37,100 nucleotides of DNA, taken from a virus. Lineage: Duplodnaviria > Heunggongvirae > Uroviricota > Caudoviricetes. The DNA is taken from IMG/VR virus record IMGVR_UViG_2718218139_000003; one strand, written 5' to 3'. Made by a program: the position numbers and the translations under genes. This document shows positions 10,386 through 35,999 of the stretch, piece after piece (positions within the stretch are counted from its first letter, which is position 1; each line of letters opens with the position of its first letter). The notes beneath the pieces are model-generated. The model did not search any database and had not been told where the DNA came from. It was given only the letters and a program-made list of their open reading frames with translations.

Positions 10386-10964
10386 TTATTGTGGGGCGAC
10401 TGGCCACTCAACATCCGCTGCTACCGCTGTATTAACACGATTCAACAATACCCGGTATGTCTTCCATGCAGCCAGTAACGATGCCTCTTCCTCCGTTGCA
10501 ATATCCAAATCTACGGCATCCTGAAGTGGCGCAATATGCTCGCTGGCTACCTGCATCAGGCTGTTTTTTGTTTCTTCCGCCTCCCTTATCCGAAACAGTT
10601 TTTCTGCTTCTGCATCTTTCACCCAGGATGTGCCGTTCCACTTCTGATACTCTCCATCCGGCGACAACCAGGTAACATTTTCCGGTAATGGACCGAGTTC
10701 AGAAATAAATAACGAGTCCCCTGATGCCACGTCATAAACCGTTTTACCCCGATGGTCTTCAACGAGATGCCACGATGCCTCATCACTGTTGAAAACGGCC
10801 ACGAAGCCAGCCGGAATATCTGGCGGGGCAATATCGGTACTGTTTGCAGGCAGACCTGTATGAGGTGGAATGTATGCATCACCTTCACCAATAAACTCAT
10901 TGGTTCCGGTCAGTAGATTATAAATTTTTATGGTCCGTGATTGTTCACTCATTCTGAATGTCAT
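10386..10964 (-). CDS. G: Tail fibre assembly protein (P2 gpG / Tfa-like)
   Basis: 192 aa directly downstream of the tail fibre gene. Confidence 0.75.
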
Positions 10965-28083: not shown

Positions 28084-28268
28084 TCACTCGTGGTTATCAG
28101 GCAAAGGTCGCGGCTGTTTGCGGCTCTGTGTCCAGTTCTGCATTTCATCACTGTTGTTTTTTGCCTGTTTGTCACGCAGCGAACGCATCAGCGCCCGGCG
28201 TTCGTGCCGTTTCAGTGAGTGCAGCCATTCGTTCACTTCAACACCGTCAGGGATCTGCGGCCACGGTG
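28084..28268 (-). pseudogene. A: Replication initiation protein A, C-terminal 61 codons separated from the rest by the IS600 insertion
   Basis: Frame joins in-frame to 29533-31648 when the IS and one copy of GTG are removed. Confidence 0.7.
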
Positions 28269-28332
28269 TGAGGTAGCCTGAGTTTAACGGACACTCCTTC
28301 CTGAAATAGAATGGCATCAGAAGGAGCTAATA

Positions 28333-28635
28333 ATGAGCAGAAAAACCCAACGTTACTCTAAAGAGTTCAAAGCCGAAGCTGTCAGAACGGTTCTTGAAAA
28401 TCAACTTTCGATCAGTGAAGGCGCTTCCCGATTATCTCTTCCTGAAGGCACTTTAGGACAATGGGTTACCGCCGCCAGAAAAGGGCTCGGTACTCCTGGT
28501 TCCCGCACGGTGGCTGAACTGGAATCTGAAATTCTGCAACTGCGTAAGGCGTTAAATGAAGCTCGCCTTGAGCGAGATATATTAAAAAAAGCAACAGCGT
28601 ATTTTGCACAGGAGTCGCTGAAAAATACGCGTTAA
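28333..28635 (+). CDS. IS600-like transposase OrfA; A AAA AAA -1 frameshift site at 28584-28590
   Basis: Identical protein to 4384-4686. Confidence 0.8.
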   Translation: MSRKTQRYSKEFKAEAVRTVLENQLSISEGASRLSLPEGTLGQWVTAARKGLGTPGSRTVAELESEILQLRKALNEARLERDILKKATAYFAQESLKNTR

Positions 28636-28670
28636 TCGAACAATGGCGACAACAATTTCCCATTGAAGCG

Positions 28671-29489
28671 ATGTGTCAGGTATTTGGTGTATCCAGGAGC
28701 GGTTATTACAACTGGGTACAGCATGAACCCTCAGACAGAAAACAAAGTGATGAGCGGCTAAAACTGGAGATTAAGGTGGCACATATCCGCACTCGCGAAA
28801 CATATGGAACCCGGCGGCTCCAGACGGAGCTGGCAGAGAATGGCATCATCGTTGGTCGTGACCGACTGGCACGTCTTCGTAAGGAGCTAAGGCTACGCTG
28901 TAAGCAGAAACGCAAGTTCAGAGCGACTACGAACTCGAACCACAATCTGCCAGTTGCGCCAAATCTGCTGAACCAGACGTTCGCTCCTACAGCACCAAAT
29001 CAGGTCTGGGTGGCGGACCTGACGTATGTTGCCACACAGGAGGGATGGTTGTACCTCGCTGGCATCAAAGATGTTTATACGTGCGAAATTGTCGGCTACG
29101 CCATGGGAGAGCGCATGACAAAAGAGCTGACAGGTAAAGCCCTGTTTATGGCGCTCAGGAGCCAGCGCCCACCTGCCGGGCTAATCCACCACTCTGATCG
29201 AGGTTCACAGTACTGCGCATACGATTACCGGGTCATACAGGAGCAGTTTGGTCTGAAAACATCAATGTCGCGTAAAGGTAACTGTTACGACAACGCTCCG
29301 ATGGAAAGCTTCTGGGGAACGCTGAAAAATGAGAGCCTGAGCCACTATCGTTTTAATAACCGGGATGAAGCCATCTCAGTAATACGGGAATACATTGAGA
29401 TTTTCTACAATCGTCAGCGTCGTCACTCTCGTCTGGGGAATATCTCCCCGGCAGCCTTCAGGGAAAAATATCATCAGATGGCTGCTTAA
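28671..29489 (+). CDS. IS600-like transposase OrfB
   Basis: Identical protein to 3530-4348; frame open from 28572, overlapping orfA in -1 frame. Confidence 0.8.
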   Translation: MCQVFGVSRSGYYNWVQHEPSDRKQSDERLKLEIKVAHIRTRETYGTRRLQTELAENGIIVGRDRLARLRKELRLRCKQKRKFRATTNSNHNLPVAPNLLNQTFAPTAPNQVWVADLTYVATQEGWLYLAGIKDVYTCEIVGYAMGERMTKELTGKALFMALRSQRPPAGLIHHSDRGSQYCAYDYRVIQEQFGLKTSMSRKGNCYDNAPMESFWGTLKNESLSHYRFNNRDEAISVIREYIEIFYNRQRRHSRLGNISPAAFREKYHQMAA

Positions 29490-29532
29490 AAAAAGAACAA
29501 ATGGTAGTGTCCGCTATTGCCAGTACACCTCA

Positions 29533-31648
29533 GTGCTGGCCGTTCTTCCGGCTGTTCTGTCCCGTTGTTGTCCGTTTCCTGTACACGAGGACAGTTATTG
29601 CCACGAGTCCAAGGGGCGGCAGGGCCGCCCTGAAGGTCAAAACCATTTTCGCGGGCGCTGTCTTCCACTTCCGGTTTACGTCTTACCAGCTTCCAGTTAT
29701 CCGGATGCGTGCACACACGGGAGGATTCCCCGATGAATGGCGACCAGATCCCGTAAATCTGTACACTCTGTTCGCCGTAATCGTTCAGCTCATCTGCGAG
29801 GTCGTAGGCGGTGCGAATCAGGTAGTCCTTGCGCGGAACAAGTACGCCACCCTGTTTTTCAATGTAGGTGGCAAAACATCCGGCATCAGCGGCAGCGAGT
29901 ACCGCATCCATTGCGTCATCCTTCAGCCGTTGCGGGCCTTCCGGGTTGCGTGCCATCTGGCTGGCAAGGCGGCGGAGTTCACGCCACACCTGACGGGAGG
30001 GGATGCCAAAGAACTGGAACTGGCGGACCCGGTGAAGGCGCGCCCAGCCGATGGCGCGCTCCACACTCTCGGCCATTGATTTACCTGTTTCGTGTTCAAC
30101 GCGTGGCTTGCCCGTTTTCGGGTCGATGCCATCCACGGCACGGCTGTCCAGGTTTTTCCCTATGTAGGTGGCGATGTAGCTGGTCGGTGTGCCTTTTGAG
30201 CCGTCGACGTACTCCGCCTTAAAGCGTGGGGTAATATCATCACCCAGCTCGTGACGATCTTCCTGAATGGCAATATCGCGGGTGTGGGACACAATGGTGT
30301 CGATTTCTTCCGGATGTGCAAAGACCATCATATGCCAGTGCACGGTGCCGTCATGGTGAGGCTCCACCGTGCGGATGCCATACCAGCGCAGGCCGTCGCG
30401 GTTCAGTTTCTTGCGGACCGCCGCAAAAAACGTGTTAACCAGGTAATCACTGGAGTCGCGCATGGTGGCCCCGTTCCATTTGGGATTCGGATGACCGTTC
30501 TCTGTTGTGGCGTGGTATTTTGACGGGCAGGTGACAGTCAGAAACACCGCTCTGTCGCCACGGGCTTCGGCCAGAAGTTCCAGCCCCTTCATGGTGGCCA
30601 TCATTTCTGCCTTACGGTGAACCGGGTTACTTACTCCCGCGTAATACACCGTTTCGAGATCAATCGTGAACCCATCTTCATTTTCCAGCATGAAACTTTT
30701 CAGGAAATCGCGTGTTTTCTCGCGCTGTGCGCGAAACTCGCTTAACGCGTCCTGGCTCAGATAGGGTGATGTTTTTCTGGAAACCAGACAGGCGGCGCGG
30801 AGTTGTTCTTCTCTCCACTCGCAACGTAACAGCCACAGTTTGCGTTTCCACCATTCCGCACAGGTCAGGCGAAGGATTGCGCCCGGCAGCAGCTCCGTGT
30901 CCGGTTCGTTCCTCCGGTCTTTGTCTGTTGTCAGTGCGTCATAATGCGGAGGCATGGCGTGCAGGTGTAACGCCATGCGGGCCAGCATTTGATACGCCTT
31001 CAGCGTTACATCCATGGTCAGCTCGCCATCAGTCGCGCCAAAGCCATCGCAGAGTTTTTCGAAGGTGCTGCTGAACATCGCCGCCGTCATGGTGGCCAGC
31101 GTCTGTATCTGGTGCTTGTTGAGCTGCGGCAGGTAAAGCAAATCGTCCAGGCGTTCGCGTCCGGCAAGGGAGCGATAACCCGGTGTCAGCCAGCGGTGGT
31201 CGGTGCGGTCCAGACGTTCGAATATTTTGCGCAGGGTTCCGCGCGCGTAGCGTTCAGCCTGCCAGCTCTTTTTGCCTTTCCGGCGATCGGCTTCCTGTTT
31301 TTTGCGCAGGAAGGAGAGGTGGCGAATAAGCGGATCGCGCAGATAGGACGGCAGCAGGCGCAGCGAGGCCATGGCTTCATCCACCGCACCGCGTGCCTGT
31401 TTTCTGGCGTCTCCTGCCAGTGTGATGGTTTTGTCCTGTTTTTCCTGTGCGTCCAGGCTTTTATTAATCAGGTTGCCCAGCGGCGTGGCGGAGAATGCCG
31501 CATCAGCCATTTCCTGGCGGCGCTCGTTCTCTGCCCGGTAGGCATCCAGCCAGGAGGAAAGCGCGGATTCAGGAGCGGGGATCCCCGTTCCTTCACGCCC
31601 CACTGCGTGGCGCGGTTGTTGCCAGTCCCTGATGTACTCTGCCGTCAT
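29533..31648 (-). pseudogene. A: Rolling-circle replication initiation protein (P2 gpA-like), N-terminal 705 codons; interrupted near the 3' end by IS600
   Basis: HUH-type motif HDGTVHWHMMVF; size about 766 aa when rejoined with 28084-28268. Confidence 0.75.
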
Positions 31649-31654
31649 AGTGAT

Positions 31655-32020
31655 TTACTTCGTCATGCCATTCAGGGTGTCGCGGCAGACTGTAGCCAGC
31701 CGCTGAATTTCCAGCACGGTGTCTTCTGTGTCGGCATGGCGATGTGTGATGCGGATGCTGTCGGCAATCACGTCGACGATTGCAGAGGATGGGCGCTGGT
31801 AAATGCCAATAACGGACGGGGTGCCACCTTCAATGCGGTAAAGCCTGTAATTTCCCTCATGGCTGTCGATCATGTAGCGACCATCAATAACAATTTTTCC
31901 GTCAGCGAGCTGCGGTACAGACAGGGATTTCAGGTACATGTCATAACGATCACGCACGCGAGCGGCAAGATCACGTTCTGTGTTGAGCAGGTATTCAAGA
32001 AAGTCGTTGGCGAGAATCAT
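31655..32020 (-). CDS. Hypothetical early-operon protein, 121 aa
   Basis: ORF in operon context immediately upstream of A. Confidence 0.45.
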   Translation of the reverse strand: MILANDFLEYLLNTERDLAARVRDRYDMYLKSLSVPQLADGKIVIDGRYMIDSHEGNYRLYRIEGGTPSVIGIYQRPSSAIVDVIADSIRITHRHADTEDTVLEIQRLATVCRDTLNGMTK

Positions 32021-32092
32021 TGCGGCAATCCTCTTGTTACAGATGTGCGAAGGCCTCCCGCCGCAAGGTGCAGGAAAGGCCCGGAACAGGAA

Positions 32093-32323: not shown

Positions 32324-32644
32324 GGTGTGGCCTCTTTGCTAGTAAGTTTTGAAAACTCACCATCCAGAGCTGCGAAACTGTGGGTGGCGAGACGTACGAG
32401 GTTCGCAGTACCGGCTAGCAAAGAACCCGGCCCGACCGAAGTCGGCCCCGTACGCCCCGCCATAATTCGTGTGCGAAAAAGACGTGGCAATACAGTACGC
32501 ACAAAAAAACCGCTGGCGCGGTTGTGCGCTTTGCTAGTCAGCAGGCTGCGAAACCCGGCACCCGTTTTATGAGGTGCAGCGGGAATGTAACCTGACTGAT
32601 TGCGGCATGGCAAGCGGTTTTTTGTGTGTGCATGTTCTGGTTTC

Positions 32645-35660: not shown

Positions 35661-35999
35661 GTGGAGTTTAGATCACATATGATCCATAAATCAAGCCTTG
35701 GAGAAAAACTTCGCCTGATTCGAGAGGCAGAGGGATTGTCACGTAGAGAGATGGAAGAGGTGACAGGGGTATCTCAAAACAATCTCAAAAATTATGAAAT
35801 ATTGGGAAGAATGATACCTGGAGAAACGCTACTCCTGATTTTGAATCATCCTCGTTTTCGGAAGTATTCGGATTGGGTGATGTTTAATCAAACTAATGCT
35901 GCGACGGGGCAGATTGCTCCGCCTCTCTCTCTTGATGGCTTCTTTGATTCGGAGGGCGATCAGGTTTCAACCGAAACAAACCAAAAATCACCCCGCTAA
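35661..35999 (+). CDS. Immunity repressor (P2 C-like, XRE-family helix-turn-helix)
   Basis: HTH LGEKLRLIREAEGLSRREMEEVTGVSQNNLKNYE; located upstream of the integrase and divergent from the early operon. Confidence 0.65.
   Translation: MEFRSHMIHKSSLGEKLRLIREAEGLSRREMEEVTGVSQNNLKNYEILGRMIPGETLLLILNHPRFRKYSDWVMFNQTNAATGQIAPPLSLDGFFDSEGDQVSTETNQKSPR

Follow-up and report, generated by a model that had tools for sequence, protein, structure and literature searches.

A probable P4-like RNA immunity cassette in the early operon of a P2-like prophage

The window analysed here, that is, the whole 37,100-nucleotide stretch of IMG/VR record IMGVR_UViG_2718218139_000003, is a P2-like (P88/Xuanwuvirus-type) prophage. 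Its early operon contains a gap that extends from the stop codon (32647-32645) of a 99-amino-acid (aa) open reading frame (ORF) to the ATG (32323) of a 76-aa ORF, both on the minus strand. This gap holds an isrK-type leader RNA and a C4-type antisense RNA, and it very probably constitutes an RNA-based immunity cassette of the prophage, a homologue of the P4 seqA-CI-seqC region whose mode of action resembles that of c4 in P1 and P7. Members of both RNA families are present, C4 is linked to its targets by two-part pairings with three-way covariation, the downstream target overlaps the Shine-Dalgarno (SD) sequence of the 76-aa gene, and the arrangement is syntenic with that of P4. All functional parts are located on the minus strand.

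The original prediction, which was made from the letters of the sequence, had offered a small RNA, an origin-like element or a regulatory site as possible identities of the gap. The first and the third of these options were both right and turned out to be the same thing, namely a pair of isrK-type and C4-type RNAs in which the conspicuous sequence motifs are the C4 loop and its targets.

Two RNA families upstream of an epsilon-like gene

The RNAs, their signals and the first downstream gene are arranged as follows:

32613-32584, minus strand: putative sigma-70-like promoter, with TTGCCA (32613-32608), an 18-nt spacer and TACATT (32589-32584)
32503-32577, minus strand: isrK-type (P4 seqA-type) leader RNA, Rfam RF01394, model positions 1-77 of 77
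32577-32558, minus strand: hairpin 1 of the isrK-type RNA
32557-32542, minus strand: hairpin 2 of the isrK-type RNA, followed by a single-stranded target stretch and the terminator
32523-32501, minus strand: predicted intrinsic terminator of the isrK-type RNA, AACCGC-GCCA-GCGGUU followed by U7, found by a terminator scan
32380-32467, minus strand: C4-type antisense RNA (P4 CI/P1 c4 family), Rfam RF01695, model positions 1-87 of 87
32323-32093, minus strand: epsilon-like gene (76 aa), homologue of the P4 epsilon gene (anti-repressor or 'derepression' protein) and first gene controlled by the proposed cassette

The Rfam covariance-model scan that had been suggested as a check on the original prediction returned two families above their gathering scores, both on the minus strand. 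The leader RNA matches RF01394 (isrK) with 65.5 bits (gathering score, 50; E=5e-12) and the antisense RNA matches RF01695 (C4) with 82.8 bits (gathering score, 45; E=5e-15). In C4 a closing stem of 17 bp encloses two hairpins, one capped by UUCG and the other presenting the specificity loop a'; the minimum-energy fold of the RNA is that of the family structure (-47.7 kcal/mol; z=-4.8). Homologues were sampled from 80 IMG/VR loci with an epsilon-like gene, all of which (80/80) carry the homologous interval at 86-99.7% identity, and they were condensed into an alignment (A1) of 58 distinct sequences. In these 58 homologues the three C4 helices are 100% paired, with four pairs changed on both sides; when the internal helices of the isrK-type RNA and of C4 are taken together, 98.7% are paired and five pairs are compensated. 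The RNA carries a CCA-like 3' tail, GCCACCC. For P1/P7 c4 and P4 CI, RNase P is known to process a longer transcript.

The putative promoter was detected in a consensus scan with 9 of 12 matches. Both of its hexamers are invariant in the 58 distinct homologues, and the predicted transcription start at about 32577 is the first base of the isrK model. From these sequence features we infer that the segment 32613-32584 acts as a promoter. At the other end of the leader RNA, the minus-strand hairpin with a run of seven T residues that had been pointed out in the original prediction is indeed present (stem-loop, 32523-32508; T7, 32507-32501) and represents the predicted terminator at the 3' end of the isrK-type RNA. 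It is equivalent to the 3' part of the RF01394 match, and its stem is invariant in the homologues.

A 14-nt inverted repeat with 93% complementarity connects positions 32610-32623 with positions 32504-32517. In long transcripts of the early operon, its A-run plus ACCGC, located upstream of the internal promoter, could pair with the 3' arm of the terminator and the U-tract. As a candidate anti-terminator this repeat found no support, the sole variant in its upstream arm being uncompensated.

The protein encoded by the 76-aa ORF shares 29% identity with P4 epsilon (BLASTP, E=2e-8). Its match to Pfam family PF25738 (Derepression) stays below threshold (22.1 bits; gathering score, 27), with P4 epsilon itself reaching 170 bits, and the gene is, on present similarity, best named 'epsilon-like'. 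Its variation shows an excess at the third codon position (42 vs 24 and 23). An invariant spacer of 73 nt (32021-32092, minus strand; 49 distinct homologues) leads from the epsilon-like gene to the adjacent 121-aa ORF; the epsilon-like gene beside it differs by up to 23% in nucleotides. A GC-rich hairpin within the spacer was considered and discarded, as it folds no better than shuffled sequences (z=-0.45).

In P4 the same two Rfam families occur in the same order, on the same strand and directly upstream of epsilon (seqA/IsrK, CI/C4, epsilon), the P4 match to isrK (RF01394) being located at 8692-8615. The spacing between isrK and C4 differs, with 35 nt in the window and 107 nt in P4.

Pairing of C4 with two target sites

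Recognition would involve a loop and a junction of C4, each of which has one partner on either side:

32423-32415, minus strand: a' (CUUUGCUAG), C4 specificity loop, equivalent to P4 seqB
32537-32529, minus strand: a1 (CUAGCAAAG), upstream target in the single-stranded part of the isrK-type RNA, equivalent to P4 seqA
32342-32334 (element 32342-32331), minus strand: a2 (CUAGCAAAG), downstream target, equivalent to P4 seqC
32408-32402, minus strand: b' (CUGCGAA), single-stranded C4 junction
32552-32546, minus strand: b1 (UUCGCAG), loop of isrK hairpin 2
32376-32370, minus strand: b2 (UUCGCAG), target in the downstream leader

Loop a' is complementary to both a1 and a2, and junction b' to both b1 and b2. 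In the window, the a1:a' duplex has a calculated energy of -10.8 kcal/mol. The a2 element runs into the SD (AAGAGG, 32336-32331) that precedes the epsilon-like gene; the a':a2 duplex (-13.7 kcal/mol) covers the AAAGAG of the SD. These elements account for the repeats that first drew attention to the gap. The TTGCTAG-type motifs are real and non-random: CTTTGCTAG occurs three times in the 37.1-kb window, in the gap only (32334-32342, plus; 32415-32423, minus; 32529-32537, plus), compared with an expectation of 0.10, and three copies were reached in 0 of 100 shuffles. They correspond to loop a' and its targets a1 and a2. Equally genuine is the duplicated gctgcgaaac, which is the second target pair, b1/b2, for junction b'; GCTGCGAAAC is present at 32369-32378 and 32545-32554 (0.16 expected). 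A general repeat search recovered the same direct and inverted pairs.

Variation among the 58 homologues is concentrated in six blocks, namely a1, a', a2, b1, b' and b2, which change together. For the upstream target, 99.6% of the alignment cells of the a1:a' helix are paired and seven of nine pairs have changed on both sides, while the b1:b' helix reaches 99.8% with four of seven pairs changed on both sides. Taken together (99.7% paired; 11/16 pairs changed on both sides), the two upstream helices have a covariation score of 0.619, compared with 0.118 for shuffled alignments and at most 0.134 for slid registers. The corresponding values for the downstream target are 95.8% and six of 11 pairs for a':a2, and 100% and four of seven pairs for b':b2, which combine to 97.4% paired cells, 10 of 18 pairs changed on both sides and a score of 0.549 (shuffled, 0.120; slid registers, at most 0.141). 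This three-way compensatory covariation is strong evolutionary evidence for pairing of C4 with both target sites. In one locus (L027) b1 is mismatched.

In total, 13 variants of a' and five of b' are found in the 58 homologues, in 17 combinations (types). Cognate duplexes average -10.1 (a) and -7.7 (b) kcal/mol, and non-cognate ones -2.2 and -1.0 kcal/mol; CUUUGGUUG/CUGCGAA is an example of a natural type that is non-cognate to the window. This pattern shows a phage population split into many RNA types that would be heteroimmune, as is known for P1 versus P7, where specificity variants confer heteroimmunity (PMC12197685, PMC7313666). The exact C4 specificity of the window was also found in more distant P2-like phages with gpA identities of 31-52%, and the order C4, epsilon-like gene, gpA is kept in these phages wherever the contig reaches far enough.

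The short leader RNA carries both a1 and b1 and is thus predicted to be able to bind C4. It may be asked whether it serves mainly as a trans-acting, Hfq-binding activator that opens the long transcript and turns on the genes downstream, or titrates C4, as described for IsrK of Gifsy-1, which is documented as an activator in trans. The RNA of the window matches the isrK family over its full length and has a predicted promoter and terminator to itself, and in Gifsy-1 the short IsrK activates translation of an ORF overlapping the C4-like RNA and thereby anrP (PMC4825925). The data from the window do not separate a decoy or activator from a cis target. P4 seqA is needed to establish immunity, which speaks for a repressive role (PMC3632133), and co-expression of the Gifsy-1 C4-like RNA did not have the consequences that simple titration predicts (PMC4825925). 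We consider a predominantly activating function in trans unlikely, and favour the leader as a target of C4 in cis.

The eta-like reading frame and competing explanations

The following frame overlaps the RNA elements:

32649-32017, minus strand: eta/Ash-like frame, spanning the promoter, the isrK-type RNA, C4, the targets and the epsilon-like gene

Accordingly, the description of the gap as ORF-free is true only approximately: this frame, which appears in the ORF list with 198 aa and TTG as start codon, is open right across it and ends in an ATGA overlap with the start of the next gene at 32020. In the window the ATG (32633-32631) is out of frame, the A-run at 32623-32618 being A6 and not A7, and the 31-aa ATG ORF at 32633-32538 is the frameshifted head of the eta-like frame. 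Apart from the window, one further locus has the A6 run. In 82 of 83 related loci, which represent several upstream contexts, there is an in-frame ATG and a frame of about 205 codons, with the ATG located seven or eight codons upstream of the -35 hexamer of the internal promoter. The frame is open in 55 of the 58 homologues, with products of 205-224 codons. With Pfam family PF10554 (Phage_ASH; gathering score, 26) the window stays below threshold at 23.9 bits, homologues reach 26.0 and 30.1 bits, and P4 Eta has 82.4 bits. Translation of the P4 record yields an Eta of 199 aa, which has three initial Met codons and whose last 65 codons are kil. Judged by these similarities, the frame is a homologue of P4 eta.

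In the E. coli GF66.2 locus (L002; NZ_CP172145, 5469-6449) and in three IMG/VR loci, the ATGA stop is missing and the eta-like frame is fused in frame with the 121-aa gene, which results in 319-326 codons. In the P4 record (L003; 8168-8767, minus strand), PF10554 matches the Eta or old 'cI ORF' frame over the CI RNA (82.4 and 59.7 bits), and not epsilon.

The frame invites the explanation that the gap is simply a pseudogene of an Ash/Eta-family protein, frameshifted by a 1-nt deletion in the A-run of the window, whose conservation reflects the protein and whose RNA matches are incidental. The ATG-initiated frame of the homologues, the Phage_ASH scores of two of them at or above threshold, and one GenBank record that labels the stretch 'similar to ash family protein' are all in line with it. 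As the sole explanation it is nevertheless very unlikely. The variable columns of the gap are distributed over the codon positions of the eta-like frame without a third-position excess (22, 26, 27), and over the epsilon-like gene variation sits at the second codon position of the eta-like frame, in which 8% of the changed codons are synonymous compared with 35% in the epsilon frame. Variation is confined mostly to the six blocks that covary as RNA duplexes, both RNA models are matched far above threshold, and amino-acid similarity to P4 Eta is found exactly over the homologous RNA elements. By these measures the eta-like amino-acid sequence is not what is conserved, and a co-existing translated frame whose sequence is unselected forms part of the best explanation.

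The open state of the frame is itself unlikely to be due to chance, given that synonymous randomisation of the epsilon-like gene leaves it open in 1.5-10% of cases, a share that varies with the allele. For P4 eta and Gifsy-1 orf45 it is the act of translation and not the product that lets transcription and translation proceed (PMC10111431, PMC4825925, PMC12197685), and by analogy the pattern of the eta-like frame fits such a role. The original prediction had named a conserved ORF that is frameshifted in this copy as the observation that would speak against it. Formally such an ORF exists; the RNA reading nonetheless stands. The eta frame of P4 overlaps its CI RNA in just this manner, and the frame of the window is without the codon-position signature of protein-level selection.

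A further proposal is that the cassette acts as an anti-satellite or cross-immunity device, with a helper C4 matching the seqA/seqC of a satellite or the reverse. It was put forward by Barquist et al. with regard to lambdoid prophages with IsrK-C4 systems (PMC3632133). For the P2-like phages it appears highly improbable: none of the 17 types recurs in 80 P4-like satellites, which between them have at least 13 loop/junction combinations, and the two groups have neither a loop nor a junction in common. An exact search for the specificity of the window gave P2-like contexts only, and the C4 variants match targets in their own cassettes. An origin of replication or another site acting at the DNA level, for which the short repeats inside a non-coding-looking gap would be the sole support, can practically be dismissed, given that there is no iteron array, that RNA pairing with compensatory covariation accounts for every repeat, that the Rfam matches, promoter and terminator are specific to the minus strand, and that the P2 origin is located inside gene A.

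Proposed mechanism, related systems and prophage setting

Based on the arrangement described above and on the precedent of P4 and P1, we propose that in the lysogen the internal promoter (32613-32584) would constitutively start transcription at about 32577, and that most transcripts would end at the terminator (32523-32501), yielding an isrK-type RNA of about 75 nt. Read-through RNA would be processed to a C4 RNA of about 80 nt (32467-32380), whose a' and b' would then form duplexes with the leader (at a1/b1) and with the sequence immediately preceding the epsilon-like gene (at a2/b2). Since the a2 duplex covers the SD, the epsilon-like anti-repressor would not be translated, and RNA left untranslated would, following P4 and P1, undergo termination ahead of the 121-aa gene and gene A. 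Processing by RNase P and an involvement of Rho are taken over from P4 and P1 by analogy. During lytic growth, transcripts from the upstream early promoter would carry the eta-like ATG, and the block would be overridden by ribosomes that travel across the terminator, C4 and the targets, by analogy with P4 eta. With the eta-like ATG frameshifted and gene A split, only the RNA half of the cassette is intact in this copy. The CI mechanism and the position of CI inside eta are summarised elsewhere (PMC4825925, PMC10111431).

Several points weigh against this model. Start of transcription, termination, processing and repression are all predicted steps. The kil gene, translation of which is directly targeted by P4 immunity, is absent and has an epsilon-like gene in its place, and because of this replacement the termination step may differ from that of P4. 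The isrK part alone folds no better than shuffled sequences (z=-0.68). Rfam family RF03163 (c4-a1b1) is matched below threshold (21.3 bits; gathering score, 46.7), so that the functional equivalence of a1/b1 rests on covariation; P4 itself scores 44.1 bits with this model. In one locus (L015; IMGVR_UViG_2565956729_000013) the loop a' (CUGUAGUUG) mismatches its own a1/a2 (CAACCAAAG); this locus is apparently a recombinant and should have lost self-repression at the a sites. Finally, a second promoter-like site (32490-32462) directly upstream of C4 could give C4 its own transcript. The -35 hexamer of this site is polymorphic (TTGCCA vs TCGCCA), and in Gifsy-1 it is the isrK promoter that the C4-like RNA requires (PMC4825925); in view of both, we keep 32490-32462 as a possible C4 promoter and no further.

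Among the closest known systems is the immunity region of P4 (PLE - seqA - CI RNA - seqC, lying within eta/kil and followed by epsilon). As in the window, the loop of its antisense RNA is complementary to one upstream and one downstream site, and an internal promoter is placed inside a long eta-homologous frame, whose register with respect to the RNA elements is shared; the specificity loops are CUUUGCUAG in the window and CCUGUGAA in P4. In this copy the eta-like frame lacks the start upstream of the promoter that P4 has, the ATG at 32633 being out of frame. By contrast with P4, which is a satellite with an alpha primase, the window contains a complete P2-like phage genome with Cox, C repressor, gpA and structural genes. 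It is without kil, its downstream target lies on the epsilon-like SD, and the epsilon-like gene, which is the first ATG-initiated gene to follow C4, is overlain in a different frame by the continuing eta-like frame.

The immI region of P1 and P7 (a1 b1 - c4 - a2 b2 - icd - ant) shares with the window recognition via a' and b', target pairs on both sides, and a downstream target that masks the ribosome-binding site of the first gene before the anti-repressor function; c4 and the antisense RNA of the window belong to the same Rfam family, RF01695. It differs in that icd-ant is regulated instead of an epsilon-type anti-repressor and a replication gene. The window stays below threshold with the upstream target model RF03163, and its cassette resides inside a P2-like early operon.

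The IsrK/STnc1160/orf45-anrP region of Gifsy-1 in Salmonella comprises an isrK-type RNA that has a promoter of its own and ends at a leaky intrinsic terminator, as predicted for the window. Its C4-like RNA is processed from read-through at the isrK terminator (PMC4825925), a step that we likewise assume for the window. In both systems an ORF overlaps the C4-like RNA, and in Gifsy-1 it is the translation of this ORF, not its sequence, that matters downstream (PMC4825925, PMC12197685). Lambdoid phages match positions 32330-32577 at about 72% nucleotide identity. Unlike the window, Gifsy-1 is a lambdoid prophage in which anrP and then antQ (anti-terminator) are located downstream, in place of the epsilon-like gene and gene A. 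A P2-like counterpart is Sp13 of E. coli O157 Sakai, for which passages of one paper report a P4 epsilon homologue and propose that it explains mitomycin inducibility despite an uncleavable repressor (PMC2669165); these passages contain no mention of an RNA cassette upstream of the Sp13 epsilon-like gene.

The early operon on the minus strand comprises, in this order, Cox, several small genes, a gene for a MarR-type winged-helix protein, the 99-aa ORF, the gap, the 76-aa gene, the 121-aa gene and replication gene A. The following genes and elements surround the cassette:

35661-35999, plus strand: C repressor gene
35563-35276, minus strand: Cox gene
32020-31655, minus strand: 121-aa ORF, in the same operon as the epsilon-like gene
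31648-29534 and 28266-27559, minus strand: two fragments of replication gene A (Pfam Phage_GPA, 437 bits)
about 28267-29533, plus strand: IS3-family element of 1,267 bp that interrupts gene A (tblastn with an intact homologue)
28333-28635 and 28671-29489, plus strand: orfA and orfB of the IS3-family element

The prophage is replication-defective because the IS3-family element splits gene A; despite this defect, the RNA genes of the cassette are intact. At least 80% of the 6.2-kb early region is carried by 784 of 5,426 complete E. coli genomes. A relationship of the 121-aa ORF with P4 orf151 was considered and rejected, as the similarity is not significant. Elsewhere in the window, a full-length match to Rfam IS009 (RF02111) was recorded at 10423-10621 on the minus strand (192 bits; gathering score, 117).

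The mechanism proposed here is textbook P4/P1 biology and both RNAs belong to curated Rfam families, which means that the gap is explained and that no new mechanism is involved. The window adds a member of this known kind of system, located in the early operon of a P2-like phage and having an epsilon-like gene where P4 has kil. Regulators of this kind are well understood, and few descriptions of them exist for this phage family. A complete P4-style cassette, consisting of an internal promoter, seqA/IsrK, CI/C4, a downstream target, an epsilon homologue and an eta-like frame, is present in a helper-type phage family, and the arrangement is common. A description of the RNA part in P2-like phages was not found in the searchable literature. 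Genome annotation mislabels the region: in the annotated records that were inspected it is either left blank or carries the label 'similar to ash family protein'. In addition, a survey of P4-like satellites used PF10554 as 'epsilon' marker (PMC8628076), which amounts to a mislabelling, since PF10554 matches the Eta frame and epsilon matches PF25738. With 17 types that are related by three-way compensatory change, the homologue population provides a clean natural experiment in RNA-RNA specificity. We consider the value of these findings moderate to low with regard to mechanism, and somewhat higher for annotation and for population-level data on specificity.

The target of the epsilon-like protein may be sought in the same prophage. 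The central variable part of the protein forms allele groups that track the type of the C repressor in 35 of 36 loci (L093-L172 plus the window; 36 loci with both readable), a sample that is small and phylogenetically non-independent. The C-repressor gene lies 3.4 kb from the epsilon-like gene, whereas the C4 type, only about 100 nt off, is shuffled among epsilon alleles. Because the epsilon allele tracks the C-repressor type and not the adjacent C4 type, these data hint at an action of the epsilon-like protein on the C repressor of the same phage. It is tempting, if rather speculative, to assume that P88-type P2-like phages possess a second, RNA-based and hypervariable layer of immunity with at least 17 specificities, which gates an epsilon-type anti-repressor directed against their own C repressor. 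Treatment of its lysogen with mitomycin C was the way in which P88 was obtained (PMC5285337). Should this doubtful proposal be true, the cassette would be the induction switch behind the mitomycin inducibility of P88 and of Sp13-type prophages with uncleavable repressors, and the whole immunity and derepression block of P4 (eta, seqA, CI, seqC, epsilon) would have been exchanged with the helper lineage.

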